Source: a virus
Taxonomy: Duplodnaviria > Caudoviricetes
Reading direction: 5' to 3' (one strand)
DNA: 58,946 nucleotides
Virus record (IMG/VR): IMGVR_UViG_3300017914_000046
Location: 1 to 58,946 of that record
In this document: positions 1 through 58,946 of the stretch, one piece after another
Layout: each line of letters opens with the position of its first letter
How positions within the stretch are numbered: position 1 is the first letter of the stretch
The notes under the pieces: model-generated
What the model was told of the DNA's origin: nothing
Databases searched by the model: none
The model's input: only the letters and a program-made list of their open reading frames with translations
Made by a program: the position numbers and the translations under genes

Positions 1-3000
1 AAAAACCTTCGGGGAGAAGGTTCTATTATTATTGGATCTGAATATGATAAAGTAACAGTACCAACAGCTGTTATTAAGTATCCAGAAGGTAATAATAGAC
101 AGATATCCATAATGGAACTTATCAACAGGTCCAGCCTTGTTAAAGACTTTGACATACAAGATCTAAGAAAAACACAAAAAAGCCCCCCTGGATTTTTAAG
201 TGGTGTTAAAAAGAAACTAGGATTTGCCGAAGGTGGTTTAGCAGAATCTAAGGGTTTAGGTTGGGGCGAACTTATTGTTGATAACATCTTAGGTTTAGAC
301 AACGAGTATGAGTCTTTTGGTGAAAAGCTTGGTAAAGCTATCAATGAAGATGAAATTAAGTTCTTAAAAGATGCAGCTGTTGGTGTATACGAAGGTACTA
401 AAGAGTTTGTACAAGCACCAGTAGAGACTACTAAACAAGTAGTTAATGAAATTAAAGACAGTGTAACTAGACTTGGTTCTGAAGATTTAAACACTAGACT
501 CCAACGTATGTATGGTGTATCATACGAACAAGCTACTGATGAACAGGTAAACCAAGCCAGAGAAGCTGTACTAGGTGATGCACTTACTGCACTAGAGCTT
601 GTACCTGCAGCTAAGGTTACAACTACTGTAGCTGGTGCTGCAATTCCAAGTGGTCTTAAAGCGGATGTTGTAGGTCAAACTAAAGCTATGCTTTCTGGTG
701 ACAGAGAGTTCTTGTCTGGTACACCTTCAAATAGAGCCAGTACTCAGTCTCTTAGTGCAGGGTTTACTGGACAGAACCCACCTACTTACCTATTTAAAGA
801 TGAGCCACCATTTGACCCTGATGGAATTTACGGAACAGAAGAGGGTATCTTAAAATTTAGAGAGCCTATTGCAGAGTTTACACTCAATCTTACAAGAACT
901 AACTCTTTTCCTAGTAAAGGTATGACAGGAGCAGAGTTTTTAAGATTACTTGAAAAGAATGCTGAATCTATTCCTCCAAGTTCTTACAAAGAAGGACTTG
1001 TAGATAAAGATAAACGATATACTAGAGAAGAACTTTTAGATGCTGTAACTAAAAGTCCAGCGGGTTTGCCAGAATCTATCTACTATAACCTTGCAGATTT
1101 AGAGGCATCTCCCAACTTTAAAGGGTTTCAACGTCAATCTCAGGTAGGTTTTACAGGGTACCCTAGATATCCAGAAGACACTTCTTATTTTTCAATACCT
1201 ATCCTATCTCGCACATCAGGCAATACTTTTAAAGCTAACTCACAACACTTTGATGTAAATACAACAGCCCATGTTAGAGGTAGTTTTATAGACCCTATGG
1301 TTGGCTTTAGTGTTGATAAAACTATGAGTCCAGAGTTTAAAAGTATTGTCGGTAAGGATCGACCTTACTTATTAGTAGAAGAGATACAATCAGACCTTTT
1401 GCAAAAAGGTTACAGAAAACCTAAAAACTCTTTTGACTTTGCTTTTGACAGGGCTACAAGTGAAACTATGGCTGGTTCGCCAGTTACTTTTCAAGAAGTT
1501 TATGGTGATCTAACTAACGAGCTTAAAAGTTTGCTTAAGAGTCTTGAAAGTAAGGGTGTAGCAATGCCCGAAGAACCTGTAAGGTTGCAACTTCCATATA
1601 GAACAGGGGTTTTAAATCACCCTCAATTTAAAGACAGAAGAAGAAGAGATTTTATAGATGAACTTTACTCACCAGAGAGAGGCACTGTAGAAGATGTCAG
1701 ACTTGTAGAGTTCGAAGAAATTAAAGATTACATAGATAAACAAGGGGTAAATTCTAGTCATATCTATCAAGTTCTTAATGATATAAAGGATGGTGCTAAT
1801 AGGACTAGGTCTATAAATGATTTTGAAAGTGTAGCATTTGTAGGTCCAAATAATAAAGCTTATGACGACATAATTGTAAGATCTAAAGATCCACTTTCAG
1901 AAAATCCAATGTATATCATAGACACAGAGTCTGCAGCTTATGATGAGTTTTTAGAAGATTTTGATGAGTATACAAAAAAGTTTGGACTTAATTATAACGA
2001 TTTGGCAGATGCATACGACAAAGAGTTAGATAAATACTACGATGCTATAGACAAAGAAATAACGGATAGAAAATTAGACAAAGATGCAGTTGATGGTGCT
2101 TTCGTTAATGGTTTATACGAAAGATTTCTTGAAATTAAAAAAGATCAAAGATTACTAGGGGATGAGACTAACACTGCATTACCCCCAGTAAGAAAAAATA
2201 AACAGACTGTTGAAGAAGCACTAAAACTTCTTATTGCCAAAGCTGATCAAGAAGGTGTAGATAAAATTGTTATCCCACCTGCAAGTAAAATAGCAGAAGC
2301 TAGAGGTAGAACTATTGACCCTTCGGATAAAGGAGACAGGTTTTACAGAACCTATGTTGCAGACTTAAACAAAGCTTTAGAAGATTTAGAAAAAAATTAT
2401 CCTGTAACTATACACAGAGATGTAGAACTACCTTATAGAAGTCAAAATGAAATAGATAATGCTGGTCAAGCGGCAGCTAATGCTGCAGATGATGCTGCAA
2501 TAAACGATGATGACCTCTTTACTGTAGAAGAGGGTAATCAGTTTTTTGATTTACCTGAAGGTTTTTTTGACGATGTGCCTGATCAACAACCAGAAAACCT
2601 TGTAGAGATAACAGAACCTTTAGGCGACGAACTCCTTCCTCCAAGTAAAAGAAAAAAGTTAGTGAAGGTAGATCATAAAGGTATAATCATCGACATCTCA
2701 AAGTTAAGAGAACAGTTTCAAGTAGATAAACCGAGACAATTTGCCGAAGGAGGCACAGTAGACATGAATCAACAAATGAGTTTTGCATTCGAGGACGGTG
2801 GTCTTCGTGACGATGGAATGATGAGAGACCCTGTGTCAGGTAACGAAGTACCTCCAGGATCTACAGCTAAAGAAGTACGTGATGATATTCCTGCACAATT
2901 ATCTGAAGGAGAGTACGTAGTTCCTGCTGATGTCGTCAGATACTACGGTGTAAAATTCTTTGAGGATTTACGAGATGCTGCAAAAATGGGCTTGCAAGAT

Positions 3001-4242
3001 ATGGAAGCTCGTGGTAGAATTGGTGGTGAACCTGTTCCTGCTGGTGGTCCTATGAATGAGGATGACCTTACACCCGAAGAGTTAGCTGCCATTCAAGAGA
3101 TGATGGGTATGTCTGAAGGTGGTACTGTTGCAGGGTTTGCCCCAGGTGGTCTTCAAACTGACCAAGATTTCCTTGCTGCAGGTCAACAGGCACAACAAAA
3201 TCAATTTACAGGATTTCCATTAGGTGCTACAATGTTCCCTAGAGCAGAGTCTGGAGAGATAGAAGCTGTTCCAACAACACCCACTATTACTACTGAAGAA
3301 ACTGCAGAGTCTTGTGCAGCTAAAGATATGGACTATGATCCAGCAACTAAAACCTGTGTACCTAGAGCAGTAGCAACAACAACACCTGCACCTTCTAATG
3401 ATGATGATAGTCCAAGAGTAGAACCACCTAAGTGGCATGAAAAGTACGACTACGCTGACACAAATAAACTTGTATCTCAATCACTAGCAACACTTGGTGT
3501 TGATTCAGACACAGAGGAAAAAGAAACTCAGAATGCTCTCCAAAAAATAATGGGTAGTGTGGGTACTGGTATCGGCAGTTTCTTTGAAAACAACTTGGTG
3601 CTTGGTGGTATTATTAGGCAACAGAAAGTTGCAGAGGTCGCAGCCAATGCTCAACTACTTAGGGCACAAGGTAAGACAGATGAAGCTGAAATGTTAGAAA
3701 ATGCTATAGCAGGTTATAGAGATAAGCATAATATTAAACCAGATGGTTTCTTTGATTCTACAAAAACTCTTGCTAAACAACTAGCTGATAAGTATTCTGA
3801 TCTTACCTATGACGAAGAAAACGAGACTATCATCAAACCAGGTAGTACTACCACTAAACCGCCCACTCCTACTTCCACCCCTACTTCCACTCCTACTCCT
3901 ACGCCTACTCCTAAACCCACAAAAAGCCCAGCAACAGCTGCAGAATCTCTAGCAAAGCAAGCAAGTAACGCCGATAACGCTGCACAGTTAGCCGCCATTC
4001 AGAAAGCACAGAGTATTGCTCAAAAAGCTGCTGATGCTGGTACAAGTATTGCTGAACAAACTCAAACAGGTTCTGATGGCTATGGCTCCTCTTCTCAAGT
4101 AGAGGAAGAAACAGGTGGTCAAGGTGATCAAGGTCTTGGATCTGGCTGGGGTGGAATGAACAAAGGCGGTTTAATGGCTGGTAAACCAAAGACTAAAACA
4201 AAACGCCAATACAAAAAAGGCGGACTCGCAGGTAAGAAATAA
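1..4242 (+). CDS. C-terminal part of giant modular (polyvalent-type) virion protein, 5'-truncated
   Basis: Frame is open from base 1 (KNLRGEGSIIIG...), so ATG 112 is not the true start. Contains the carrier repeat after FAEGG (223), a domain with HF...AHVRG...LLVEEIQSD, a DDIPAQLSEGEYVVPADVV domain, a Pro/Thr linker and a basic C-terminus. Lies between portal and scaffold. Confidence 0.8.
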   Translation, partial: KNLRGEGSIIIGSEYDKVTVPTAVIKYPEGNNRQISIMELINRSSLVKDFDIQDLRKTQKSPPGFLSGVKKKLGFAEGGLAESKGLGWGELIVDNILGLDNEYESFGEKLGKAINEDEIKFLKDAAVGVYEGTKEFVQAPVETTKQVVNEIKDSVTRLGSEDLNTRLQRMYGVSYEQATDEQVNQAREAVLGDALTALELVPAAKVTTTVAGAAIPSGLKADVVGQTKAMLSGDREFLSGTPSNRASTQSLSAGFTGQNPPTYLFKDEPPFDPDGIYGTEEGILKFREPIAEFTLNLTRTNSFPSKGMTGAEFLRLLEKNAESIPPSSYKEGLVDKDKRYTREELLDAVTKSPAGLPESIYYNLADLEASPNFKGFQRQSQVGFTGYPRYPEDTSYFSIPILSRTSGNTFKANSQHFDVNTTAHVRGSFIDPMVGFSVDKTMSPEFKSIVGKDRPYLLVEEIQSDLLQKGYRKPKNSFDFAFDRATSETMAGSPVTFQEVYGDLTNELKSLLKSLESKGVAMPEEPVRLQLPYRTGVLNHPQFKDRRRRDFIDELYSPERGTVEDVRLVEFEEIKDYIDKQGVNSSHIYQVLNDIKDGANRTRSINDFESVAFVGPNNKAYDDIIVRSKDPLSENPMYIIDTESAAYDEFLEDFDEYTKKFGLNYNDLADAYDKELDKYYDAIDKEITDRKLDKDAVDGAFVNGLYERFLEIKKDQRLLGDETNTALPPVRKNKQTVEEALKLLIAKADQEGVDKIVIPPASKIAEARGRTIDPSDKGDRFYRTYVADLNKALEDLEKNYPVTIHRDVELPYRSQNEIDNAGQAAANAADDAAINDDDLFTVEEGNQFFDLPEGFFDDVPDQQPENLVEITEPLGDELLPPSKRKKLVKVDHKGIIIDISKLREQFQVDKPRQFAEGGTVDMNQQMSFAFEDGGLRDDGMMRDPVSGNEVPPGSTAKEVRDDIPAQLSEGEYVVPADVVRYYGVKFFEDLRDAAKMGLQDMEARGRIGGEPVPAGGPMNEDDLTPEELAAIQEMMGMSEGGTVAGFAPGGLQTDQDFLAAGQQAQQNQFTGFPLGATMFPRAESGEIEAVPTTPTITTEETAESCAAKDMDYDPATKTCVPRAVATTTPAPSNDDDSPRVEPPKWHEKYDYADTNKLVSQSLATLGVDSDTEEKETQNALQKIMGSVGTGIGSFFENNLVLGGIIRQQKVAEVAANAQLLRAQGKTDEAEMLENAIAGYRDKHNIKPDGFFDSTKTLAKQLADKYSDLTYDEENETIIKPGSTTTKPPTPTSTPTSTPTPTPTPKPTKSPATAAESLAKQASNADNAAQLAAIQKAQSIAQKAADAGTSIAEQTQTGSDGYGSSSQVEEETGGQGDQGLGSGWGGMNKGGLMAGKPKTKTKRQYKKGGLAGKK
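223..491 (+). repeat. Carrier repeat copy A (ungapped match to 58678-58946)
   Basis: 269 nt align without gaps; 364-491 is identical to 58819-58946; the earlier part differs almost only at synonymous sites. Confidence 0.95.
3847..3924 (+). repeat. Pro/Thr low-complexity linker
   Basis: Encodes TTTKPPTPTSTPTSTPTPTPTPKPTK; includes the tandem CCTACTTCCAC unit. Confidence 0.8.
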
Positions 4243-4283
4243 GGCTACCCAGCTACGGCTGGCCCCAACATAAGGAGAATATA

Positions 4284-5201
4284 ATGCCTGAACTAACAGA
4301 AGTAGAAGCACCAAAGACAGTAGGATTTGTTGACAGAGGTTATAACTACGAACGCAAACGTAAGCGTATTGAAGAAGAAGAAGAGGAGATTAAACGTCTT
4401 GAGGCCGAACAGCGTGGTGAACTTGAAACTAACGAAAGCGAACAAACAGAACAGCCAGAGTCAGAAGAAAGTGCCGAAACGAAAGAGGCCGATACAGAAG
4501 TTGAAGAAGCAACGTTATCTCCAGAAGAAAGATCTTTTAAAAAAAGATATGGTGATCTAAGACGCCATATGCAAGAAAAAGAAAAGGAATGGAACGAGAA
4601 GTTCGAAGCCTTTGAAAAACGCATGAAGAAGGATTCTATTGTTCCTCCCAAGTCTGATGAAGATATTGAAGAGTGGGCAAAAGAATACCCTGACGTAGCA
4701 GGTATCGTAGAAACTATTGCTGCTAAGAAAGCTCAAGAAATGTTTAGCAAAGCTGATGCTAGACTAAAAGAGTTAGATCAGGCACAAACAGAAGCACAAC
4801 GAGTAAAAGCGGAAAATCAAATTCGCAAGGCTCACGAAGACTTTGATGATCTTCGAGCTTCCGATGAGTTTCATAACTGGGCTGAAGAACAGCCTAAGTG
4901 GGTACAAGATGCACTCTATGAAAATGCAGATGATCCTGCATCAGTAGTACGTGTCATTGATTTGTACAAAGTAGATAAAGGCCTTACTAAAACTGCAAAG
5001 AAAGCTAAGGCTAAAGATGCAGCTTCTACAGTTACAAGACGTAGTAAAACGTCTGTAGATGTAGATGATGCAAGTGACACTATTCGTGAATCAGATGTAG
5101 CTAAAATGTCAGACAAAGAGTTTGAAGCTAGATCTGAGGAAATCAACAAAGCTATCCGTTCGGGTAAATTTGTTTACGATGTATCTGGCAATGCTAGATA
5201 A
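4284..5201 (+). CDS. Capsid scaffolding protein
   Basis: Very acidic coiled-coil protein directly upstream of the capsid gene; AAGGAG RBS. Confidence 0.7.
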   Translation: MPELTEVEAPKTVGFVDRGYNYERKRKRIEEEEEEIKRLEAEQRGELETNESEQTEQPESEESAETKEADTEVEEATLSPEERSFKKRYGDLRRHMQEKEKEWNEKFEAFEKRMKKDSIVPPKSDEDIEEWAKEYPDVAGIVETIAAKKAQEMFSKADARLKELDQAQTEAQRVKAENQIRKAHEDFDDLRASDEFHNWAEEQPKWVQDALYENADDPASVVRVIDLYKVDKGLTKTAKKAKAKDAASTVTRRSKTSVDVDDASDTIRESDVAKMSDKEFEARSEEINKAIRSGKFVYDVSGNAR

Positions 5202-5207
5202 AACCTG

Positions 5208-5238
5208 TTGACAATACTTTAATCAACAGTATAACTAT
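5208..5238 (+). promoter_or_regulatory. Sigma70-type promoter for capsid gene
   Basis: TTGACA (5208)-N16-TATAAC within GTATAACTAT; the same motif recurs at 48715, 52581 and 33483(-). Confidence 0.65.
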
Positions 5239-5446
5239 AGGCACAGAGACAAAAGCCTCTTTATGACTACCTTTTGTCTCAACCTAATTCATCAAAAAAG
5301 TCTAAAACTAAAAAGAACCACCTGTTTAAGTATAGGCCCAGTAGGTATACGGTAGCGCAACTGTGATCCATCTGCACCCTAGAAAAGGAACAGCCTCTTT
5401 GTAGGTGTTTAGCTTTGTTAAGCCAAATATCATGGAGGATTTTATC

Positions 5447-6520
5447 ATGGCTTTTACAACTGCAGGTGGCTACGGAAATTTACCAAACGGTAATTTCTCC
5501 AGCGTCATCTATTCCAAAAAGGTTCAGCTTGCCTTTAGAAAAAGCACAGTAGTTGGTGATATCACTAACTCTGATTATTTCGGTGAGATCAGTGCTCAAG
5601 GTGATACAGTGCGTATCATTAAAGAACCTGAAATTTCGGTCTCGTCTTATGCTCGTGGCACACAGATCACAGCACAAGACTTGGACGATGAAGACTTCTC
5701 TCTAGTTGTTGACAAAAGCAACTACTTCGCCTTCAAGGTCGATGATATCGAAGAAGCTCACTCACACGTAAACTTCATGGATCTTGCGACCAACCGTGCG
5801 GCATACCGCTTGGCTGACCAGCATGACCAAGAAGTTCTTGGTTACCTATCAGGTTATAAGCAGTCATCTTTGCATACGCAAGCTGATACTGTAAATGACA
5901 CTGTAAACGGTACTAAAGCAGTAGATACTGCAGGTTCAGACGAATTGCTATCTTCAATGAAGTTGAAGAAGGGTGACTTTGGTAACATCACAACTGCTTC
6001 TGCAGGTGACCACTCAATCCCAGTTGCAGCACGTCTACCAGGTGCAACAGCACTACCAACTGCTACGATTTCACCAGCAATGATGGTGGCTCGTATGGGT
6101 CGTCTACTTGACCAACAACAAGTTGACACTCAAGGTCGTTGGATCGTTGTTGACCCAGTATTCATGGAAGTACTTCGTGATGAAGACTCACGTCTATTCA
6201 ACGCAGACTTCGGTGAATCAGGTGGCCTACGTAATGGTCTAGTCTTGAACAACTTCCACGGTTTCCGTGTATATAGCTCAAGCAACCTACCATCAGTAGG
6301 TACTGGTCCTGCAACAACAGGTACAGCTAACCAAAACGCTAACTATGGTGTTATTGTTGCTGGACATGACTCAGCTGTTGCAACTGCCGAGCAGATCAAC
6401 AAAACTGAAACATACCGTGACCCTGACTCATTTGCAGACATTGTTCGTGGTATGCACCTATATGGCCGTAAGATTCTTCGTCCAGAAGCAATCACTACAG
6501 CTAAATATAACTTGGCGTAA
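5447..6520 (+). CDS. Major capsid protein (HK97 fold, P22 coat-like)
   Basis: GGAGG RBS before ATG 5447 (preferred to GTG 5405); motifs YFGEISAQGDTVRI and RDPDSFADIVRGMHLYGRKILRPE; strongly biased codon use. Confidence 0.9.
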   Translation: MAFTTAGGYGNLPNGNFSSVIYSKKVQLAFRKSTVVGDITNSDYFGEISAQGDTVRIIKEPEISVSSYARGTQITAQDLDDEDFSLVVDKSNYFAFKVDDIEEAHSHVNFMDLATNRAAYRLADQHDQEVLGYLSGYKQSSLHTQADTVNDTVNGTKAVDTAGSDELLSSMKLKKGDFGNITTASAGDHSIPVAARLPGATALPTATISPAMMVARMGRLLDQQQVDTQGRWIVVDPVFMEVLRDEDSRLFNADFGESGGLRNGLVLNNFHGFRVYSSSNLPSVGTGPATTGTANQNANYGVIVAGHDSAVATAEQINKTETYRDPDSFADIVRGMHLYGRKILRPEAITTAKYNLA

Positions 6521-6534
6521 GGGGGGATTGAATT

Positions 6535-6933
6535 ATGACACCTAACGGAATGCGTACAATCTCAGTAGAACTAAATGCAACAGATCTAGCATCTGGTGCA
6601 AACACAGTTGCTACTCTTCCTGCACAAACAGTTATCCTAGCTGCTGGCGTTGAAGTTACTGAAGCACTTACTGGTGCTACAGCTTTGACTTTCGACATTG
6701 GTACAGGTGCTGATGATGACGAGTTCGTTGCAGCATATGCAATGGCTGGTAAATCAGTTGGCGATGTTGCTCCTTCAGTACCAGGAGTAGCATATATCGG
6801 TGCAGAAGACACTTTGGACCTTACAATCGACACCCTAACAGGTACAGCTACTGCAGGTAAACTGCGTGTCTGGGCTTTGGTAATGGACGTTGATGGTAAA
6901 GGTGCAGCAGAAGTTGCTCGTGATCAAGTTTAA
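6535..6933 (+). CDS. Putative capsid decoration/minor capsid protein
   Basis: 132 aa Ala/Thr/Gly-rich protein between the MCP gene and a terminator. Confidence 0.5.
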   Translation: MTPNGMRTISVELNATDLASGANTVATLPAQTVILAAGVEVTEALTGATALTFDIGTGADDDEFVAAYAMAGKSVGDVAPSVPGVAYIGAEDTLDLTIDTLTGTATAGKLRVWALVMDVDGKGAAEVARDQV

Positions 6934-6945
6934 CTAAACTAAACT

Positions 6946-6982
6946 AAAGGGGCTGGTCAAGTACTGGCCCCTTTGTGCTTTA
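6946..6982 (+). terminator. Rho-independent terminator
   Basis: AAAGGGGCTGGT-CAAGT-ACTGGCCCCTTT hairpin followed by a T-rich tail. Confidence 0.7.
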
Positions 6983-6998
6983 AAAAGAGGATATACTC

Positions 6999-7436
6999 AT
7001 GGCAATTACTACAGCAATGTGTAACAGCTTTAAACAGGAATTACTGCAGGGTGAGCATGATTTAGACAACCACACATTGAAGGTTGCCTTGATTAAGGAT
7101 ACACCTACAGGAACCTATGGTGCTGCTACAACAAACTATTCTGACGTTACAGGTAATTCAGATGAAGCTACAGGTACTAACTACACTGCAGGTGGTCAAG
7201 CACTAGATAGCCCTACTGTTAGCCTTTCTGGTGGTGTGGCTTTCGTTGACTTTGCAGACGAAGTATTTAGCAACTTAACTATTTCTGCTGATGGTGCTAT
7301 TATCTACAACAGTAGTGTTAGCAACAAAGCTATTGCAGTCTTTGACTTTGGTAGTACAGTGACATCAACATCTGGTGACTTCACTATTGTATTCCCAACC
7401 AATGACTCTTCTAGCGCAGTAATACGTATTAGCTAA
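6999..7436 (+). CDS. Virion structural protein (tail/fibre associated)
   Basis: MAITTAMCNSFKQELL...AVFDFG type structural protein; position before the fibre gene. Confidence 0.55.
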   Translation: MAITTAMCNSFKQELLQGEHDLDNHTLKVALIKDTPTGTYGAATTNYSDVTGNSDEATGTNYTAGGQALDSPTVSLSGGVAFVDFADEVFSNLTISADGAIIYNSSVSNKAIAVFDFGSTVTSTSGDFTIVFPTNDSSSAVIRIS

Positions 7437-7452
7437 ATCCAAGGTATAAACA

Positions 7453-15421: not shown

Positions 15422-16591
15422 ATGCTAGGCTTTTCTAGTTTTTCCCAAGCTACGTTTTCATCTACAGGTGCTGCTGCGCTTGCTGCTCTTGGCTATCTAG
15501 CTACGACATCAGCGCAGCTTGCAGCAGGTACTTTAATATCTAACGGTCAAGCTGGACCAATATTACCTGCTGCTACTGCTACCTTTACAGCTAATGCTTT
15601 TGGTGATGTAGATGCACAAGCTACAACAGAACTAGTAAACGCCCTAGCCTCGTTTAACATAGCTACCCTAGCTGATATAGATGCTCAAGCTAGTACAACT
15701 ATACCAGCAGCTACAGCTAGTTTTACTGCAGCAGCATTTGATGATGTAGATGCACAGGCTAATACAACTTTATCAGGTGCAACATCTACTTTTGCTGCTT
15801 CAGCACTTGACTTTGATGCACAGGCAAGTATAACTACTACTAATGTAGTTGCTTCTTCTAGCATTAGTGACTTTACTTCTGTAACAGGTAAAGCTAATAT
15901 TACACCAAGTGGTGCTACAGCTACCTTTGCATTAGACATAGACTTTGACGCTAAAGCAAACACAAGCATAGGCGGCTCAGTTACAGCCACACTTACTGCT
16001 GCAGATGTTGAGGGTGACGGTCAAGCAAGTGGATTCTTATCTACTACTGCAGCATTCCTCTCTATCTATATCTCAGACTTTGCAGACGAGGATGCACAAG
16101 CTAGAGCATTCATGCCAGTGGCAGCGTCTAGCATTACAGCAAGTGACTTCGGTGACGTAGACGCTAAAGCTAATACAACCAGTGAATCTGTAACAGCCGC
16201 ACTAGCAGTATCAGCATTCGATGATGTAGATGCTAAAGCTAACACAACACCCAGCGCAGTAACAGCTACAATAGCTAACGCAGCGTTTGACGATGTAGAC
16301 GCACAGGCAACAGTAGTACCACCTTCTGTCGTATTAACCCCAGCTATAGATTTAGATGACCCTATTGCTGTAAGGTTTGACTTCGGTCAGTTTGCTGACA
16401 GTTACGATAGATCAAGAGTGCTTTATATAGTTTCTTACGGTGGTAGTGATACCGTACATGTTACTGAAGAAAACAGAACAGTTTATATAGATTCATACGG
16501 TGGTAGTAATACTATACATGTTACTGAAGAAAACAGAACAGTTTATATAGATAAAGATATGCAGAACTACACTGTGTATATTGCAGCATAA
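15422..16591 (+). CDS. Ala/Thr-rich repetitive structural protein
   Basis: About ten FxDVDA(Q/K)A(N/S)T repeats. Confidence 0.65.
   Translation: MLGFSSFSQATFSSTGAAALAALGYLATTSAQLAAGTLISNGQAGPILPAATATFTANAFGDVDAQATTELVNALASFNIATLADIDAQASTTIPAATASFTAAAFDDVDAQANTTLSGATSTFAASALDFDAQASITTTNVVASSSISDFTSVTGKANITPSGATATFALDIDFDAKANTSIGGSVTATLTAADVEGDGQASGFLSTTAAFLSIYISDFADEDAQARAFMPVAASSITASDFGDVDAKANTTSESVTAALAVSAFDDVDAKANTTPSAVTATIANAAFDDVDAQATVVPPSVVLTPAIDLDDPIAVRFDFGQFADSYDRSRVLYIVSYGGSDTVHVTEENRTVYIDSYGGSNTIHVTEENRTVYIDKDMQNYTVYIAA
16433..16552 (+). repeat. In-frame 60-bp tandem duplication
   Basis: SYGGSDTVHVTEENRTVYID / SYGGSNTIHVTEENRTVYID; the second halves are identical in DNA. Confidence 0.9.
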
Positions 16592-19159: not shown

Positions 19160-20761
19160 ATGGCAGATGGATATACACGGCAGCGATCTAGTGAAATTGT
19201 AAACGGTAACGTTATTGATGCCGACGATTTTGACGCAGAGTTTAACGCAGTTGCAGGTGCAATGAACGCATCTACTGGACACAACCATGACGGAACCAGT
19301 GGTGGTGGTGCCCCAATCGAAAGCATTGGTCCTGCACAAGACTTAGTCGTAACTTCTACTAATGTTAATCCTAAAACAACTAACACATTAAGCTTAGGTG
19401 CAGCGGGTGCTCAGTATAAAGATGCATTTTTTGATGGAACAGTTCAGACAGACTTACTATTGGTAGATGAAACTTCAACATTTACTGGAGCTATTACTGC
19501 TAATGGCGGTATTACAGGTAATCTTACTGGAGATGTTACTGGTGACCTTACAGGTAACGCAGACACTGCTACAACATGGGCAACTGCACGAGAGATTGCA
19601 CTTACAGGAGATGTCACAGGTAGTGTAACAGGTGTTGACGGTAGTGGTAACATTAGCATTACTACTACAGTAGCTGCAAATTCTGTCGCACTGGGCACAG
19701 ATACTTCTGGTAACTATATGACAGATGTGTCAGCAGGTACAGGTGTTACAGTTACTCACACCCCTAACGAAGGGTCTACTGCTACTGTGGCTATTGGTCA
19801 AGCAGTGGGTACTACTGACAATGTTACATTTAATACAGTAACTGCAAACCTTACAGGTAACGTCACAGGTAATGTTACAGGGAATATCACAGGTAACGTT
19901 ACAGGGAATGTCACAGGGAATGCAGACACAGCAACTACCTTAGCAACTGCAAGAACTATTGCAGGTCAAAGCTTTAACGGTTCTGCTAACATCACTATTG
20001 CTGCAACAGATTTGTCTGACACTAACCAAGCATTATCAACTACATCAAATGTTACATTTAATAACTTAACAGTATCAGGTGATCTTACTGTATCAGGCAC
20101 AACTACTACTGTTAATACAGAGACAATCAACCTAGCAGATAACCAGATCGTACTTAACAGCAACGAAGCAGGTACACCTACACAGAATGGCGGTATTGAG
20201 ATTGAACGTGGTACTGCTGCTAATAAAACTCTTGTATGGAATGAGACAGATGACAAGTGGACAGTAGGAAGCGAAACATTTGTAGCAGGTACTTTTGAGG
20301 GTGCGCTTACAGGCAACGTCACAGGCAACGTTACAGGTAATCTGACAGGTGATGTTACAGGTGATGTCACTGGTAATGTTACAGGTAACCTAACAGGAAA
20401 TGTAACAGGCAATCTAACGGGCGATACTACAGGCACACACACAGGTGCGGTTAATGCTACTAACGTAACAGTAACAGGAGTTGTTACAGGCGATGTGACA
20501 GGTGATGTGCTTGGCGATGTAAAGGCTAACAACGGCACCGTCATATTAGATAGTGGAACGAATGGTACAGATGCAGCATATACAGGTAACGTTTCTGTAC
20601 CCGACAACATTACATTTACTGAAGGTGCGTCTGACTGGAAGTTTGAAATAAATGCGTCTAACGAACTTGTAATATCGTATGGCGGTACAAACAAGATGAA
20701 GCTAGATACATCTGGCAACCTAACAGTAACAGGTAACGTCACAGCTTACGGAACAGTATAA
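19160..20761 (+). CDS. Tail fibre/needle protein with (V/L)TG(N/D) repeats
   Basis: DAEFNAV...GHNHDG N-terminus; long tetrapeptide repeat tracts. Confidence 0.75.
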   Translation: MADGYTRQRSSEIVNGNVIDADDFDAEFNAVAGAMNASTGHNHDGTSGGGAPIESIGPAQDLVVTSTNVNPKTTNTLSLGAAGAQYKDAFFDGTVQTDLLLVDETSTFTGAITANGGITGNLTGDVTGDLTGNADTATTWATAREIALTGDVTGSVTGVDGSGNISITTTVAANSVALGTDTSGNYMTDVSAGTGVTVTHTPNEGSTATVAIGQAVGTTDNVTFNTVTANLTGNVTGNVTGNITGNVTGNVTGNADTATTLATARTIAGQSFNGSANITIAATDLSDTNQALSTTSNVTFNNLTVSGDLTVSGTTTTVNTETINLADNQIVLNSNEAGTPTQNGGIEIERGTAANKTLVWNETDDKWTVGSETFVAGTFEGALTGNVTGNVTGNLTGDVTGDVTGNVTGNLTGNVTGNLTGDTTGTHTGAVNATNVTVTGVVTGDVTGDVLGDVKANNGTVILDSGTNGTDAAYTGNVSVPDNITFTEGASDWKFEINASNELVISYGGTNKMKLDTSGNLTVTGNVTAYGTV

Positions 20762-50214: not shown

Positions 50215-50532
50215 ATGGCAATACCTGAACGAGTAAAAAACAAGATGAAAGAAGTTGGTCTTAAAGAGGTCAACAAACCACAACGTCTAAATGACGACAG
50301 TGGTAAATCTCACCATGTTATGGCTTCTGAAGGTGGTAAGTATAAGTATATCAAGTTTGGTCAGAAGGGTGTAAAAACCAATCAGACTGCAGGACAGCGA
50401 GAGGCATTCAAGTCTCGCCACGCAAAGAATATCAAAAAGGGTAAGATGTCTGCAGCATACTGGGCTGATAAAGTAAAGTGGAGTCCCTCTAAAACTAAAT
50501 CCCCTTCTAAGAAGTGGGTGAAAGGTTCATAA
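50215..50532 (+). CDS. Small basic protein
   Basis: IKFGQKG...REAFKSRH...SAAYWA; Lys-rich. Confidence 0.65.
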   Translation: MAIPERVKNKMKEVGLKEVNKPQRLNDDSGKSHHVMASEGGKYKYIKFGQKGVKTNQTAGQREAFKSRHAKNIKKGKMSAAYWADKVKWSPSKTKSPSKKWVKGS

Positions 50533-50720
50533 TGTGGATAGGGATAATGCTCGTCTGTTTTGATCCTATGGCATTGTCCTGTAAGATTATAGCAAAACCA
50601 GAGCCATTTTATACTGAGAAAGCTTGCTTAGAAGAAGCTGAACAAATAGCAACTAATATAAGAGCAGGAGGTGCTTATGCTACACCACACTGCCACAAAG
50701 TCGAAGGGGGCAACACTTAA
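50532..50720 (+). CDS. Small Cys-containing protein with hydrophobic N-terminus
   Basis: MWIGIMLVC...SC...AC...HC; ATG overlaps the upstream stop. Confidence 0.55.
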   Translation: MWIGIMLVCFDPMALSCKIIAKPEPFYTEKACLEEAEQIATNIRAGGAYATPHCHKVEGGNT

Positions 50721-50905
50721 TGGCTACCAAAAAGAAAAGCACAGTAAATGCTGCAGGTAACTATACCAAGCCAACTATGCGTAAGAACCTTGTGGCAAAA
50801 GTCAAGGCGGGTTCAAAAGGTGGCAAGCCTGGACAATGGTCTGCGAGAAAAGCCCAGATGGTTGCAAAACAATATAAAGCAAAAGGCGGGGGCTACAAAG
50901 CATGA
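50720..50905 (+). CDS. Small basic protein (DUF5872-like N-terminal part)
   Basis: NYTKPTMR...GGKPGQWSARKAQ...YKAKGGGY. Confidence 0.6.
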   Translation: MATKKKSTVNAAGNYTKPTMRKNLVAKVKAGSKGGKPGQWSARKAQMVAKQYKAKGGGYKA

Positions 50906-51384
50906 AGGCTCCCCAAAAGTCATTAAAGAATTGGACAAAGCAGAAGTGGCGCACAAAGAGTGGCAAGCCTAGTGCTAAGACTGGAGAACGGTACTTACCC
51001 GAGGCAGCAATTAAATCTTTGTCGTCTGCAGAATATGCAGCCACCACTAAAGCAAAACGTGAAGGTACAAAGGCTGGCAAGCAGTTTGTAAAACAGCCAA
51101 AAAGTATAGCAAAGAAAACAGCAAAGTTTAGAGCAGCAGAGGGTGGCATGGCTAAAGGTAAAACTAAATGTCCTAAGTGTAAAGGGGCAGGATGTTCTCA
51201 TTGTGGTGGTAAAGGCTATCATATGGGTATGAGTAAAGGTGGGGATACTGGAAAGAATCCCAACAAGGGAATCGCAGAACTACGTAAAGTAGCTCCAGGT
51301 GCAGTTAAAGCTATGGGGTATAAACATGGTGGACTTACAAGGTCTACTGGTAAACTAAATACTGGCATTAAAGGGTGTGAATAA
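50902..51384 (+). CDS. Basic protein (DUF5872-like) with CxxCxGxG finger and xxGG motifs
   Basis: QKSLKNWTKQKWRTK...ERYLP; CPKCKGAGCSHCGGKG; AAEGG, MSKGG, YKHGG. Confidence 0.65.
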   Translation: MKAPQKSLKNWTKQKWRTKSGKPSAKTGERYLPEAAIKSLSSAEYAATTKAKREGTKAGKQFVKQPKSIAKKTAKFRAAEGGMAKGKTKCPKCKGAGCSHCGGKGYHMGMSKGGDTGKNPNKGIAELRKVAPGAVKAMGYKHGGLTRSTGKLNTGIKGCE

Positions 51385-51944
51385 TGGCTAAAGAATATAA
51401 AACAATCGCAGCTGCACAAAAAGCAGGATCAATGTATTTCGTAGGTAAAGACGGTAAGAAAAAACTTGCTGTCACTAAAGAACAACTAGACGCTTGGAAA
51501 AAGCGTAACAAGGGTAAGTTTAAAGGTTCAGCACTTACAGCTTGGGCTAATGCTAAAGGTAAAGATATTGGTGCCAGTAAGCGTGACTCTTCTCCACGTC
51601 CTCAATTACGTCCAGGTTCTAAAAAACCTGGTCCAGAGCAAGGTCCAGCAGCAGGTACTGGTGCAACTTTACAAGAAAAGAATGCACTAGATGCAGCCAA
51701 TAAAAGAACCAAAGAAGCCAGAGAGGAAAAGGCTGGTACAAAGAAACGTACTTCTGCAGGACAAAAGTTTAATGCTTGGTATGATAAGAACGGTGACAAA
51801 TATGGTACCATGAAAGAAGCTATGGAAGCTTATCAAAAAACTCTTAAGTCAGGTATGTCATATGGTGGCATGGCTAAAAAGAAAAAGATAGGTATGTCCA
51901 AAGGTGGTATGATTGATATGAGGAAAACAGGGTTGTTCAAATGA
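51384..51944 (+). CDS. Lys-rich protein with C-terminal MxxGG motifs
   Basis: MSYGGMAKKKKIGMSKGGM. Confidence 0.65.
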   Translation: MAKEYKTIAAAQKAGSMYFVGKDGKKKLAVTKEQLDAWKKRNKGKFKGSALTAWANAKGKDIGASKRDSSPRPQLRPGSKKPGPEQGPAAGTGATLQEKNALDAANKRTKEAREEKAGTKKRTSAGQKFNAWYDKNGDKYGTMKEAMEAYQKTLKSGMSYGGMAKKKKIGMSKGGMIDMRKTGLFK

Positions 51945-53668: not shown

Positions 53669-54068
53669 AACTTGGACGTTACCTAAGCCAGATTTTGTTG
53701 ATGGTGAGTATGTCTGGAAACCTGTGGTAAGATTAGGTAGTCATGTACCATTTGGCTATAGACAAGACCCAGATGATCGTGATATACTATTACCAGTTCC
53801 AGAGGAACTAGAACTATTTGAGCTGGCTAAAAAACACCTTAGACGTTATAGCTACAGAGAAGTAGCTGGTTGGCTCAGTACACAATCTGGAAGATATATC
53901 TCCCACGTAGGTTTATACAAGAGAGTAAAACTTGAGCGAAAACGTAAGACAGAAGCTGCAACTCAACGCTACCTCGCCCAACGCTATAAAGAAGCCCTCG
54001 AAAAAGCGGAAAGGCTCGAAGGTAGACTCCTCGGTCAAAAAGAGTACACCAGCTCAACCGAAGCCTGA
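53655..54068 (+). CDS. Putative DNA-binding protein between terS and terL
   Basis: VPFGY...YSYREVAGWLS..SGRYISHVGLYKR HTH-like. Confidence 0.6.
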   Translation: MTTNKTWTLPKPDFVDGEYVWKPVVRLGSHVPFGYRQDPDDRDILLPVPEELELFELAKKHLRRYSYREVAGWLSTQSGRYISHVGLYKRVKLERKRKTEAATQRYLAQRYKEALEKAERLEGRLLGQKEYTSSTEA

Positions 54069-55491
54069 AGAGCTAGACTTTGAACAGGTTGCACAAGAAG
54101 TTATATTTGAGCCAAATCCTGGTCCACAGACTAGCTTCTTGGCTGCAACTGAACAGGAGGTTCTTTATGGAGGTGCTGCTGGTGGAGGGAAATCCTATGC
54201 AATGGTTGCCGACCCTGTACGCTACTTGGGGAACCCAAATGCGAGAATGCTTCTTGTGCGCCGTAGCACAGAAGAACTTAGGGAACTTATCTCGGTAAGC
54301 AAACAACTTTATCCCAAGGCTATCCCTGGAATCAAGTTTATGGAAAGGGATAAAACTTGGGTAGCTCCATCAGGTGCTACATTGTGGATGTCATATCTTG
54401 ATAGAGATGATGACGTTATGAGATACCAAGGTCAAGCTTTTAACTGGATTGGCTTTGACGAACTTACACAGTGGCCTACACCTTATGCATGGAACTATAT
54501 GAGGTCACGTCTCCGTACTACTAAGGCATCAGGATTGCCACTGTATATGAGAGCAACAAGCAACCCTGGCGGCCCAGGGCATCAGTGGGTAAAGAGAACA
54601 TTCATTGATCCTCAGACTCCAAACAAAGCGTTCCATGCTACTGATGAAAACGGAGATGTGATCACTTGGCCGAAGGGTCATAGCAGAGAGGGTGAGCCTC
54701 TGTTCAAACGTAAGTTTATTCCAGCCACCCTTTTTGATAACCCTTACCTTTCGGACGATGGACTTTATGAAGCCAACCTTTTATCTTTGCCTGAACACCA
54801 ACGGAGACAGTTGCTTGAAGGTGACTGGGACATTAACGAAGGAGCAGCTTTCCCAGAGTTTAACCGAAACATCCACGTTGTTGACCCATACGACATACCA
54901 AGCAACTGGATACGCTTTAGAGCTTGCGACTACGGTTATGGTTCCCACACTGGAGTTCTTTGGTTTACTGTAGTTCCTGGATCAGAGCAGTTGGTAATCT
55001 ACAGAGAACTGTATGTATCTAAGGTAACTGCTACAGACTTAGCAGATATTATCCTAGAGATAGAAGCAGAGTCAGGGGAAAAGATACGTTATGGAGTTCT
55101 TGACTCTTCTTTGTGGCATAATCGTGGTGATACTGGTCCTAGTCTCGCTGAACAGATGATTATGAAAGGTTGCAGATGGAGACCGTCAGACAGATCTAAA
55201 GGTTCTCGTGTAGCTGGTAAGAATGAAATACATAGACGTTTACAAGTAGATGAGTTTACAGAAGAGCCTAGGGTTGTGTTTTTTAGTAATTGCACTAACA
55301 CCATAGCACAGATACCCAGTCTACCTCTTGATAAGAATAATCCAGAAGATGTAGACACCCATGCAGAGGATCACTTGTACGATGCTCTTAGGTATGGTAT
55401 AATGACAAGACCTCGTAGTAATGTGTTTGACTTTGATCCTGCAGCACAAAGAACAGGATTCCAAGCATCAGATCCCACTTTTGGATATTAA
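53932..55491 (+). CDS. terL: Terminase large subunit
   Basis: Walker A YGGAAGGGKS, Walker B GFDELTQW, ATSNPGG, nuclease CDYG and EDHLYDALRY; start uncertain. Confidence 0.93.
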   Translation: MSENVRQKLQLNATSPNAIKKPSKKRKGSKVDSSVKKSTPAQPKPEELDFEQVAQEVIFEPNPGPQTSFLAATEQEVLYGGAAGGGKSYAMVADPVRYLGNPNARMLLVRRSTEELRELISVSKQLYPKAIPGIKFMERDKTWVAPSGATLWMSYLDRDDDVMRYQGQAFNWIGFDELTQWPTPYAWNYMRSRLRTTKASGLPLYMRATSNPGGPGHQWVKRTFIDPQTPNKAFHATDENGDVITWPKGHSREGEPLFKRKFIPATLFDNPYLSDDGLYEANLLSLPEHQRRQLLEGDWDINEGAAFPEFNRNIHVVDPYDIPSNWIRFRACDYGYGSHTGVLWFTVVPGSEQLVIYRELYVSKVTATDLADIILEIEAESGEKIRYGVLDSSLWHNRGDTGPSLAEQMIMKGCRWRPSDRSKGSRVAGKNEIHRRLQVDEFTEEPRVVFFSNCTNTIAQIPSLPLDKNNPEDVDTHAEDHLYDALRYGIMTRPRSNVFDFDPAAQRTGFQASDPTFGY

Positions 55492-55500
55492 GGAAAAGAT

Positions 55501-57606
55501 ATGGAAGAAGAATTTGAAGATATGGCAATGGATTTAGATCAGGCTTCTGCTATTGAAGACGTAGCAGAAGATGATTATACAGATCCAGTCACAGGTCAAA
55601 TCGTCCAGTTTGTAAGAGACAAGTTTAATAAAGCAGAGACAGCACGTCAGCTTGATGAAGAGCGGTGGATCAAAGCTTACAGAAACTACAGAGGTATGTA
55701 TGGATCTGATGTACAGTTTACTTCTACAGAAAAGTCTCGCATCTTTGTTAAAGTTACTAAGACAAAAACACTAGCTGCTTACGGACAGATTGCAGATGTT
55801 TTGTTTGGTGGCAACAAGTTCCCTCTTAGCATTGACCCTACTAAACTTCCAGAAGGTGTAGAAGAAACTGTAAACTTCGAAACAAACGAACAGCTACGTA
55901 AGGCAGTTGGCAACGACGAGATGGCTACTCTACTTCCTGGAGAAACTTATCCAGAGTTTAGAGAACGTCTAGCAGGATTAGCAGGTGTATTAGAACCTGT
56001 ACTTGACGATGTTAAATCTGGAACTTCTGGAAACCCATCTGCAGTACAGATGCACCCTGCAGAGATTGCCGCTAAGAAAATGGAAAAGAAAATCCATGAT
56101 CAGCTAGAAGAATCTCATGCAAAGAAACACTTACGTGCAGCTGCATTTGAATGTGCATTGTTTGGTACAGGTGTAATGAAAGGACCGTTTGCGGTAGATA
56201 AAGAGTACCCTAACTGGTCAGATGAGGGGGAATACTCCCCAGTCTTTAAAACAATTCCACAAACTACTTCTGTATCTATCTGGAACTTCTACCCAGACCC
56301 AGATGCATCTACTATGGAAGAAGCAGAGTTTGTAGTTGAACGCCATAAGATGTCACGTTCACAGGTACGTGCACTTAAAAATCGTCCATACTTCCGTTCC
56401 AATGCTATTGATAACACCCTAAGCCTTGGTGAAAACTATCGCAAAGAGTGGTGGGAACAAGTAATGGAAGACAACTCAGAAGAGGGTAAGGCTGACCGTT
56501 TTGAAATCTTAGAGTTTTGGGGTTTTGTAGACAGAGAAATTATTGAAGATCAAGGGGTGGACATCCCTTCAGAATTAAAAAATGCAGATCAGCTTAGTGT
56601 AAACATCTGGGTTGCCAATGGACAAGTACTACGTCTAGTGATGAATCCATTTACTCCAGCTTACATTCCATACTTTGCTGCACCATATGAAATGAATCCA
56701 TACAGTATTTTTGGCGTAGGTATCGCTGAAAACATGGATGACACACAAACACTTATGAATGGCTTTATGCGTATGGCAGTAGACAATGCTGCCTTATCAG
56801 GTAACTTACTTATTGAGGTAGACGAGACTAACCTCGTCCCAGGGCAAGACCTCTCCGTGTATCCAGGCAAAGTGTTTAGGAGACAGGGAGGGGCACCTGG
56901 TCAAGCTGTGTTTGGCACCAAGTTCCCTAACGTATCTAATGAGAACATGCAGATGTTCGATAAAGCGAGAGTACTAGCAGATGAATCAACTGGCTTCCCT
57001 TCCTTCGCACATGGTCAGACAGGCGTATCGGGAGTGGGCCGTACTGCCTCTGGTATTTCTATGCTTATGTCTGCTGCCAACGGCAGTATACGGAATGTAG
57101 TAAAGAACATTGATGACTATCTACTGGCACCACTAGGTAAAGCTTTTTTTAACTTTAACATGCAGTTCGACTTTGATGAAGAAATAAAAGGCGACTTAGA
57201 AGTTAAAGCTCGTGGTACAGAGAGCTTGATGGCTAACGAAGTACGTAGCCAACGCTTGATGCAATTCTTACAAGTTGTACAGAACCCAGCACTAGCACCG
57301 TTTGCTCGTATGGATTATATTGTTCGTGAGATTGCTAAGTCTATGGATCTTGATCCAGATAAAGTTGGCAACAACATGGCAGAAGCTGCAGTACAAGCAG
57401 AGATACTAAAACAATTCCAAGCAGAGAATCCACCAGAACCACAGCCAGGAGTTCCTGGTCCACCTGCAGCAGGGCCACAGGGCGCTCCTGCGGGGGCACA
57501 AGTGCAGGATACGCAAGGTAGCGGGGGTGGTACTATAGGAACGGGTACAGTGCCTACACCAGGAGAACAGGGCTTCTCAGGTAACACTGGCCCACAGGTA
57601 CAATGA
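55501..57606 (+). CDS. Portal protein
   Basis: 701 aa after terL; WNFYPDP, GVGIAENMDDTQ, RTASGISMLM. Confidence 0.88.
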   Translation: MEEEFEDMAMDLDQASAIEDVAEDDYTDPVTGQIVQFVRDKFNKAETARQLDEERWIKAYRNYRGMYGSDVQFTSTEKSRIFVKVTKTKTLAAYGQIADVLFGGNKFPLSIDPTKLPEGVEETVNFETNEQLRKAVGNDEMATLLPGETYPEFRERLAGLAGVLEPVLDDVKSGTSGNPSAVQMHPAEIAAKKMEKKIHDQLEESHAKKHLRAAAFECALFGTGVMKGPFAVDKEYPNWSDEGEYSPVFKTIPQTTSVSIWNFYPDPDASTMEEAEFVVERHKMSRSQVRALKNRPYFRSNAIDNTLSLGENYRKEWWEQVMEDNSEEGKADRFEILEFWGFVDREIIEDQGVDIPSELKNADQLSVNIWVANGQVLRLVMNPFTPAYIPYFAAPYEMNPYSIFGVGIAENMDDTQTLMNGFMRMAVDNAALSGNLLIEVDETNLVPGQDLSVYPGKVFRRQGGAPGQAVFGTKFPNVSNENMQMFDKARVLADESTGFPSFAHGQTGVSGVGRTASGISMLMSAANGSIRNVVKNIDDYLLAPLGKAFFNFNMQFDFDEEIKGDLEVKARGTESLMANEVRSQRLMQFLQVVQNPALAPFARMDYIVREIAKSMDLDPDKVGNNMAEAAVQAEILKQFQAENPPEPQPGVPGPPAAGPQGAPAGAQVQDTQGSGGGTIGTGTVPTPGEQGFSGNTGPQVQ

Positions 57607-57809
57607 AACTTGTAGTGAATAATACTTTGAAACCTTTTGTAAACAATCCAGAACTGTATAATCCTTTTCTGGAAGAGATCATGAACCGAATAGATAAGGT
57701 ACACAAACGCCTTGAGCAGATTACAGATGTAGAAGAACTGTACCGTGCTCAGGGTGAAATACGTGTGCTTAGATCTTTGCTACTTCTTAGGGAACATGTA
57801 AATGGTTAA
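57603..57809 (+). CDS. Small head-associated protein
   Basis: ELYRAQGEIRVLRSL; sits right after the portal gene. Confidence 0.65.
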   Translation: MKLVVNNTLKPFVNNPELYNPFLEEIMNRIDKVHKRLEQITDVEELYRAQGEIRVLRSLLLLREHVNG

Positions 57810-58946
57810 TTTGACAGGTATGCTACCACCTGGGCTTGGTGGAGAACAAGAGCAACCAAAACCACTATCTTATGAACCAGAATTAGACCTCAATAAGACT
57901 CAAAAGTTTGATGAACCAGTTGGTAAAGGTCTAGGTCTTTCTGACGAGCTTATGTCTGAAGTAGAAGATTATGTAGCCAACCCACCACTTGAATCTAAGA
58001 AAAGCCCTATTGACGCTGCTATTGAAGCAGGTTACCTAATTGCTGAAAAAATCTCTCCAGATCTAACAAAGTACCACAGTAACTTATCTGAATATACACC
58101 AGAGGGTAACAAGGCAATTAGGGGTATGTTTAAAAACGCCCTTGGTTCTGATCCAAATTGGAATCCTGTGGAATATGCTTGGTGCGCCACTTTTGTAAGT
58201 CAGGTGTTAAGTGATCTTGAGGCAGACCCTATTAAGTCTAAAGATAGGTATGATAGAGTTAGAGCGGATAAGTATAAAAATTACGGATCACCTGTTGAAA
58301 TAGATAAGATTACAGAAGGTGATATTGTTGTTTTTGACTTTGACGGTGACAATAAAGGAGATCATGCTACCTTTTATGTAGGTGATAGAGACGATTATTT
58401 TAACAGTAATCCAGAGTCTCCTTATATTTCAGTTCTTGGTGGTAATCAAGGCGATGCAGTAAATATCAGAGAATATCCAAAAGAGAATATTTTAGCTGTG
58501 CGTAGAATTACTTACAAGGATATTGATTACGAGTTTACTAAAGAACTAGCCAGAGATAATAAAGACTTTAATGTTTTTCTTAAAGAACAGGGTAAGGATG
58601 TTGATCCTTTTTCTTTAGGTACGTCTACAATGGATGAGTCTAATAGGCCATTTCCTTTTGATCCGCAGTACTCAACTTTTAATGAAGGCGGTCTAGCTGA
58701 ATCTAAAGGTTTAAGCTGGGGTGAACTTATTGTCGATAACATTTTAGGTTTAGACAATGAGTATGAATCTTTTGGTGAAAAGCTTGGTAAAGCTATTAAT
58801 GAAGACGAGATTAAGTTTTTAAAAGATGCAGCTGTTGGTGTATACGAAGGTACTAAAGAGTTTGTACAAGCACCAGTAGAGACTACTAAACAAGTAGTTA
58901 ATGAAATTAAAGACAGTGTAACTAGACTTGGTTCTGAAGATTTAAA
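57802..58946 (+). CDS. N-terminal part of giant modular protein with NlpC/P60 (TIGR02594/CHAP-like) peptidase domain, 3'-truncated; not in ORF track
   Basis: ATG 57802 overlaps the previous gene and the frame is open to the end; AWCATFV...GDIVVF...GDHATF...VLGGNQGDAV, then FNEGG and the carrier repeat. Confidence 0.88.
   Translation, partial: MVNLTGMLPPGLGGEQEQPKPLSYEPELDLNKTQKFDEPVGKGLGLSDELMSEVEDYVANPPLESKKSPIDAAIEAGYLIAEKISPDLTKYHSNLSEYTPEGNKAIRGMFKNALGSDPNWNPVEYAWCATFVSQVLSDLEADPIKSKDRYDRVRADKYKNYGSPVEIDKITEGDIVVFDFDGDNKGDHATFYVGDRDDYFNSNPESPYISVLGGNQGDAVNIREYPKENILAVRRITYKDIDYEFTKELARDNKDFNVFLKEQGKDVDPFSLGTSTMDESNRPFPFDPQYSTFNEGGLAESKGLSWGELIVDNILGLDNEYESFGEKLGKAINEDEIKFLKDAAVGVYEGTKEFVQAPVETTKQVVNEIKDSVTRLGSEDL
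58678..58946 (+). repeat. Carrier repeat copy B
   Basis: Matches 223-491; the window ends inside the repeat. Confidence 0.95.

Follow-up and report, generated by a model that had tools for sequence, protein, structure and literature searches.

A giant modular gene cut by the ends of a phage contig: probable circular closure and the tip of a second allele

Described systems and the giant gene

Polyvalent proteins of phages are proposed, in the text of Iyer, Burroughs, Anand, de Souza and Aravind (2017; PMC5512222), to be packaged and injected, with cell-wall enzymes helping to breach peptidoglycan, and the same text mentions MuF/SPP1 gp7 head proteins fused to variable effector domains (PMC5512222). 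Here, we describe a giant gene between the portal gene and a probable scaffold gene of a virus (Duplodnaviria; Caudoviricetes), IMG/VR record IMGVR_UViG_3300017914_000046; the window is this whole stretch of 58,946 bp. The two ends of the window carry the same protein module behind unrelated sequences, and an interpretation made from the letters alone (the sequence-only reading) had taken them for parts of one gene with two such modules, termed carriers, and three payloads. We consider it very probable that there is one gene with one N-module, that the contig is a closed circle with the tip of a second strain attached, and that the payloads differ by recombination between co-occurring strains.

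According to this reading, the contig would be cut inside one gene, and base 58946 would be joined to 492. The encoded virion protein of 1631 aa would consist, in this order, of an NlpC/P60-like hydrolase, the connector FNEGG, the helical N-module, a variable middle, the connector FAEGG, the C-terminal core, and a GGLM-polyLys end. Bases 1-363 would be foreign to the main molecule and represent the end of a second strain's allele (allele B), in which another N-terminal payload, ending in a domain X, is fused to the same N-module via the same connector type; the assembler may have attached this tip where the alleles become identical, within 364-458. The giant protein would be packaged and ejected, its hydrolase domain might help in crossing the cell wall, and payloads would be exchanged by recombination between strains.

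Like the polyvalent proteins in the text of PMC5512222, the gene encodes a very large multi-module polypeptide among the virion genes of a portal–terminase phage. Its 1631 aa comprise a hydrolase-like domain and at least three further modules delimited by mosaic homology to relatives, and its gene follows TerL, portal, and the 68-aa gene and precedes scaffold and capsid. A cell-wall hydrolase and extensive mosaicism are further common traits with the proteins described in that text, as are an HExxH metallopeptidase-like payload and LPD23 in allelic relatives. The N-module, the C-terminal core, and regular [FYM]xxGG connectors at module borders were not found in the article text of PMC5512222, whose domain lists are held in external files, and the word “linker” has 0 occurrences in that text. 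The window's own protein differs in that it carries no Pfam family of the polyvalent repertoire at E ≤ 0.01; its full-length version, the public protein P0008, matched 0 Pfam families at this threshold. In the allelic relative P0104, LPD23, the Pfam “large polyvalent protein associated domain 23”, reached 35.5 bits against a cut-off of 27, and a DUF6782 metallopeptidase stayed below its cut-off, as did LPD23 in the relative P0016. Based on the adjacency to the portal gene, the wall hydrolase, the LPD23/HExxH payloads in alleles, and the mosaicism, the giant protein fits the polyvalent-protein class as a new member, and its packaging and delivery are predicted.

Peptidoglycan hydrolases also occur in ejection proteins and in hydrolase-bearing tape measure proteins; T7 gp16, for example, is an ejection/internal virion protein with a cell-wall hydrolase domain. 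The giant protein resembles these as a virion protein with such a hydrolase and by its matches to PHROG 1259 and PHROG 3547. One difference is that no homology to T7/P22 ejection proteins appeared in any search made; another is that its gene lies between portal and scaffold, not in a tail module. The MuF/SPP1 gp7 proteins, which Jamet et al. reportedly discussed in 2017 as “MuF polymorphic toxins”, share with it the position just after the portal and a conserved part fused to variable effector-like domains. The payloads of the giant protein, however, are mostly N-terminal and in the middle, not C-terminal, and Pfam matched no MuF domain in P0008 or its segments, even at E ≤ 5.

The morphogenesis module of this phage type is reported as widespread in the ocean in the available text of PMC8528129 and PMC9038755. 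Neither virion proteomics nor anything on this gene was found in the available text of the papers on CRP-9, CRP-901/902, and HMO-2011-type phages (PMC8528129, PMC9038755, PMC10149686). A description of the family's modularity and connector was likewise not found in the literature searched, where no paper pairs “HMO-2011” with “polyvalent protein”.

The window ends and the second allele

At its right end, the window contains an open reading frame (ORF) that starts with an ATG at 57802 on the + strand and is still open at the last base (381 aa). A frame of the same strand at the left end is open from base 1 (1..4242, 1413 aa). As the sequence-only reading had stated, both contain the same module: 58684-58946 and 229-491 match at 94% without gaps. 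These copies are separated by 58455 bp, and the module is present in the window only as these two end copies. Eighteen bases differ between 223-491 and 58678-58946, the last of them at 363. A codon recount over the two segments gave exactly the figures reported before, i.e., 15 differing codons, of which 13 are synonymous and 2 non-synonymous (A/N and G/S), and then 128 identical nt (364-491 = 58819-58946). The sequences ahead of the connector are indeed unrelated: an ungapped comparison of the 222 nt before F(A/N)EGG gave 29% DNA identity, and the copies show no protein likeness in this region (best BLASTP E = 1.1).

P0008 (1631 aa), from a public protein collection, is identical in every residue to the end ORF joined to residues 164-1413 of the 1..4242 frame. 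A 3617-nt contig of run X1 spans 229-1500 and departs from the window at exactly 15 letters; 10 of these were listed, and all are the letters of 58684-58818. The number of differences in 229-363 is also 15. In this contig, the peptidase-linked carrier passes straight into the sequence after the repeat. The loose end of this contig ahead of 229 equals window 58654-58683. All sequence comparisons with the runs X1, X4, X8, and X10 were made on assembled contigs, not raw reads, and gaps in contig coverage (e.g., X1 over 1-158) were not counted as evidence. The IMG/VR contig L005, which is distinct from the window and represents a slightly different strain, aligns colinearly with 57415-58946 (97.6%) and carries on into 229-1056. 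In L005, L006, L007, L008, and L010, peptidase, one carrier, post-carrier region, and core lie within a single ORF of 1615-1877 aa, and two carriers were absent in all 20 fetched loci apart from the window.

P0008, the X1 contig, and L005 show a one-carrier join and thereby contradict the proposal that this genome has two carriers and three payloads within one gene. Base 58946 most likely runs on at 492, giving one 1631-aa gene with one carrier. Its 5' part (allele A; 57802..58946, + strand) contains the hydrolase-like domain, FNEGG, and the carrier start, and is matched by P0008 and colinear with L005; the remainder (492..4242, + strand) contains the rest of carrier and post-carrier, the variable middle, and the conserved C-terminal core. 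With base 58946 continuing at 492, the repeat spacing of 58,455 bp is the genome length. The 128 identical bases, which form a closure overlap at 58819..58946 (+ strand), are then best read as one DNA written twice where the circle closes, not as homogenised paralogues, and the recent homogenisation suggested earlier is not supported.

Metagenome assemblies contain circular viral contigs with a terminal overlap of k-mer length as well as strain-variant tips, and 128 nt is near the largest k-mer in common use by metagenome assemblers. The window shares with such contigs that an exact 128-nt overlap joins its end to an internal site and that the sequence before this site is a minor variant. It differs in that the overlap is not at the very contig start, and the record is classed as linear for this reason; its CheckV completeness is 100%. 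As best explanation, we regard the window as the complete genome of a podophage, assembled as a circle of ~58,455 bp, whose morphogenesis module resembles that of Roseobacter phage CRP-9. The cultured relatives CRP-9 and CRP-738 have genomes of 56,157 bp and 53,826 bp, respectively. A record classed as linear thus appears to be a closed genome with 363 foreign bases at its start, and automatic annotation will split the 1631-aa gene into two truncated ORFs, suggesting a false internal duplication.

The putative allele-B tip (1..363, + strand) comprises the tail of domain X (1-222), FAEGG (223-237), and the carrier start with the 15 strain differences. Its junction was found in contigs from three other studies. 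The 3465-nt contig of X4 spans 1-1500 and has 1069 nt more upstream, the X8 contig matched 1-449 with 0 differences, and the X10 contig matched 1-927 and has 1296 nt upstream. The peptidase-type letters at 259-363 were seen in none of them. Since these contigs depart from the window only from 459 onward and the alleles are identical in 364-458, the window appears to switch strain somewhere within 364-458. In X1, the domain-X junction lies on a separate 174-nt contig with a depth of 3.4, compared with 16.7 for the main contig, a contrast that is a hint only, with one depth figure per contig. The comparisons support bases 1-363 as a real second allele of the giant gene from a co-occurring strain, which had been named beforehand as the alternative to a two-carrier gene.

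Divergence between the alleles is patchy, with 15 differences in 229-363, none in 364-458, and a further cluster in 1120-1263, which supports payload differences by recombination between co-occurring strains. Between the window and the contigs of X4, X8, and X10, few changes occur in 459-663 and almost none up to 1119, followed by a dense cluster in 1120-1263, and this looks like recombination patches.

Domain X is part of the same gene in L019, L020, P0101, and P0104. In L019, L020, and P0104, it comes after the HExxH payload with Pfam LPD23. In P0101, it ends in a ...FLSGIRNKLGFAEGG connector, which is the same as at the end of domain X in the window, and runs directly into the C-terminal core. 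P0016 (2103 aa) consists of a 90-aa N-module, FNEGG, an HExxH payload, YAKGG, and then the carrier and onward. Allele B would probably measure ~2100 aa and be built like P0016/P0101, with the N-terminal 90 aa, LPD23, the HExxH payload, domain X, FAEGG, and the carrier. In the protein searches, domain X and carrier were not found within one protein; no match covered more than 74% of a 200-aa query (104 hits over 777-2473 aa and 119 over 351-2000 aa). The exact 35-nt pattern of the allele-B junction had 0 matches in viral contigs and 0 in metagenome contigs, and a domain-X protein scan of the metagenome contigs returned only the contig of L019, as L023.

Some observations weigh against a single-carrier gene with a second-strain tip. 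The full allele-B gene was found in no searched collection, and we infer its N-terminus from the relatives. X1 may come from the sample that yielded the window, and P0008 carries no stated provenance; both may therefore be non-independent of the window. An exact repeat of 128 nt could also collapse in a de Bruijn graph and, with contigs and no raw reads compared, hide a tandem arrangement. Moreover, the two-carrier architecture of the sequence-only reading does exist in nature, if rarely: P0025, a public protein of 1322 aa, is the only one of 125 relatives with two N-modules, at residues 2-157 and 524-673. They flank an HExxH payload, are joined by NRYAEGG, and, being 62% identical, are too divergent for assembly collapse. 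P0025 and the expected collapse of a 128-nt exact repeat in short-k assemblies are what speaks for a true tandem gene in the window, with peptidase, FNEGG, carrier 1, a payload ending in domain X, FAEGG, carrier 2, and the rest, of which the stretch from 58946 to 1 would have been lost when the repeat broke the assembly. We regard this as very improbable, because P0008, the 3617-nt contig of X1, and L005 go from the peptidase-linked carrier straight to 492, and the domain-X contigs of X4, X8, and X10 lack a second, peptidase-type carrier. The X1 depths point the same way, as do the single copies in 119 of 120 relatives and the 100% completeness of the record at 58.9 kb, compared with 53.8-56.2 kb in cultured relatives.

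It is still less probable that bases 1-363 arose purely as a chimera of the assembly, e.g., by mis-joining with an unrelated phage, and correspond to nothing in nature. In favour of this, the join of the contig is itself chimeric, with its strain switch in 364-458, and domain X followed by the carrier occurs in no protein or contig of the searched IMG/VR, JGI metagenome, and protein collections. Yet the contigs of X4, X8, and X10 carry domain X, FAEGG, and carrier with 0 differences over 1-449 and extend on both sides, and domain X belongs to the same gene in L019, L020, P0101, and P0104, in P0101 with the very ...FLSGIRNKLGFAEGG connector. We give the least credence to both forms being separate paralogous genes of one genome. 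Two junctions within one contig, and nothing more, suggest this, whereas the window contains only the two end copies of the module, and in every locus long enough, just one gene separates the 68-aa gene from the scaffold gene.

Modules, connectors, and their exchange

The conserved helical N-module lies at 247..750 (+ strand), from KGLxWGELIVDN to about SGDREFLSGTP, and is nearly invariant in 14 aligned relatives. It was found in 120 of 125 related proteins, with one copy in 119 of the 120, and is roughly as conserved as the portal across loci. In 83 of the 120, it starts within the first 39 residues and forms the N-terminus of the protein, although some of these cases could be truncated gene calls. 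In L013 and L014, the N-terminal position is genuine, as the ORF opens right after the 68-aa gene. Four of the 125 relatives, CRP-9 gp54 included, have the C-terminal core without the module. An obligatory “carrier” is ruled out by these four proteins, and together with the 83 in which the module is a plain N-terminus they make the name a poor one. An AlphaFold2 model of the module (14-row alignment) was all-helical and of low confidence (mean predicted local distance difference test score, pLDDT, 43.3), with no usable fold, and a profile search of PDB sequences returned no match at E ≤ 1. Pfam and PHROGs returned nothing significant for the carrier, the middle region, or domain X, and the domain-X region of P0104 found no usable match in the ESM Atlas.

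The NlpC/P60-CHAP-like core of the hydrolase lies at 58162..58524 (+ strand; ORF residues about 121-241), with Cys128 and His188 invariant. In the region before FNEGG, NLPC_P60 (E 0.0073; 16.7 bits, gathering score 23) and CHAP (E 0.0076; 17.2 bits versus 26) both remained below their Pfam cut-offs. PHROG 1259, “baseplate hub subunit and tail lysozyme”, matched the region at E 9.8e-17. Among ten aligned relatives, NLPC_P60 was matched at E ≤ 0.01 in five (best E 1.7e-5) and CHAP in four. In alignment A3, C128, H188, and Q216 are invariant, and the Cys precedes the His as expected, so C128 and H188 may be the catalytic residues. The AlphaFold2 model (10-row alignment) was of low confidence (mean pLDDT 42.3) and placed the Cys at a helix start and the His on a strand. 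A PDB sequence search gave one weak match, the cell wall hydrolase 7cfl (E 0.022), and tblastn matched phage endolysins and tape-measure genes, those of Caulobacter phages among them. The NlpC/P60 label given earlier is moderately supported, by PHROG 1259, the five relatives, and the invariant Cys and His, with the Pfam scores against it; the N-terminal domain is plausibly a diverged NlpC/P60-CHAP-like peptidoglycan hydrolase.

The C-terminal core (2740..4242, + strand) begins with two connectors followed by DDIPAQLSEGEYVVPADVV... and ends with GGLM and a Lys-rich tail (about 4156-4239). It is present in 96 of the 125 relatives, and GGLM followed by lysines is invariant in all 12 C-termini aligned. 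Its likeness to a tape-measure segment is weak, with a match of the core to PHROG 3547, “tail length tape measure protein”, at E 7.5e-8.

The FNEGG connector of allele A is located at 58678..58692 (+ strand; TTT AAT GAA GGC GGT), and the FAEGG connector at the core start at 2740..2754 (+ strand; TTT GCC GAA GGA GGC). DNA homology to the window begins at 2739 in L005, L006, and L013 and at 2730 in L019 and L020, so that in these five loci it restarts just at the FAEGG that opens the core. The relatives have 38 N-terminal extensions of at least 100 aa, which form six similarity clusters (single linkage). All 38 end in a [FYMWLI]xxGG connector within their last 35 residues, compared with 2.7% of 35-residue windows drawn at random from other parts of these extensions. 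In a set of 126 proteins, there were 713 occurrences of the motif versus 273 ± 17 in shuffles. Left ends of high-scoring segment pairs (≥75% identity) fell within −3 to +12 residues of a motif at 41% of 97 merged boundaries versus 6% at random; the enrichment was much weaker for right ends (13% of 320 versus 7%). Shared ancestry inflates these motif and segment-pair counts; only the few clusters and the two conserved modules whose starts bear the motif are independent units. The three FxEGG copies of the window differ in their Gly codons, which indicates constraint on the peptide, and conservation of the connector at the DNA level as a recombination signal is ruled out by these codons.

Versions of the giant gene differ greatly among loci whose TerL and portal are 98.6-99.8% identical to those of the window. 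L007 has the cell-wall hydrolase front and the carrier, followed by a middle region that is only 37% identical. L011 and L012 have the carrier without a peptidase match and 90 residues ahead of FNEGG, which are probably the short N-module. The giant gene of L019 contains the 90-aa N-module, the LPD23 and HExxH payload, domain X, a further domain, and the core, and no carrier. With all 38 extensions ending in a connector, and near-identical head genes beside different architectures, the cassette exchange at FxEGG proposed by the sequence-only reading finds support, and module exchange at connectors among relatives is real. The comparisons mark the giant gene as a diversity hot spot, and possibly it is an anti-defence or entry determinant.

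On the 28,854-bp contig of L019, the gene occupies 3820-8214, and TerL and portal are 99.8% and 99.4% identical to those of the window. In Roseobacter phage CRP-738 (L004, 8938-12606), the giant gene is split into two ORFs. One product, gp40, has the N-module, a methyltransferase-like motif, and DUF7178; the start of the other, gp39, resembles the 90-aa N-module, and this protein holds the ...SEGEYVLPAHVV core.

The connectors could be linkers, processing sites, or docking tags. A more far-reaching idea is that [FYM]xxGG(L/M/T) peptides are functional signals, i.e., processing sites or capsid/scaffold-docking tags, that make the modules autonomous exchangeable units. We hold this to be rather unlikely; it draws on the connectors closing 38 of 38 payloads, opening the core, standing in the GGLM-polyLys end at 12 of 12 C-termini, and recurring at 50215-51944. 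If it were true, co-occurring strains of this abundant marine phage type, 99% identical in their head genes, would maintain a population-level cassette system for injected effectors, and two-carrier forms such as P0025 would be exchange intermediates. Co-folding of the giant protein's C-terminal 60 residues (alignment A4) and the major capsid protein (A5) scored 0.00, which gives no verdict either way. At 50215-51944 of the window, four small, very basic ORFs between lysis and terminase genes bear AAEGG, MSKGG, YKHGG, and MSYGG, and one of them ends Lys-rich, like the C-terminus of the giant protein.

Gene neighbourhood and other window features

Upstream of the giant gene lie the genes for TerL (53932..55491) and portal (55501..57606, + strand), and the 68-aa gene (57603..57809, + strand), which is conserved in 15 IMG/VR loci and in CRP-9 (L003). 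Downstream follow an acidic protein of 305 aa, the probable scaffold (4284..5201, + strand), and the major capsid protein (5405..6520, + strand), whose CRP-9 homologue is annotated as “putative coat protein”. TerL, portal, 68-aa gene, one giant ORF, scaffold, and capsid follow one another in every locus of sufficient length.

Repeats were also observed elsewhere in the window. Long arrays with a 12-nt period at 19487-20529 have 16-20 copies, code for four-residue (V/L)TG(N/D) repeats, and presumably lie in a tail-fibre-like gene. Four diverged copies of a 71-nt unit (61-82% identical to the reference copy), spaced 261-375 nt apart at 9787-10817, suggest a repeated protein domain. At 16422-16541, there is a 60-nt tandem duplication in perfect register, with 92% identity.

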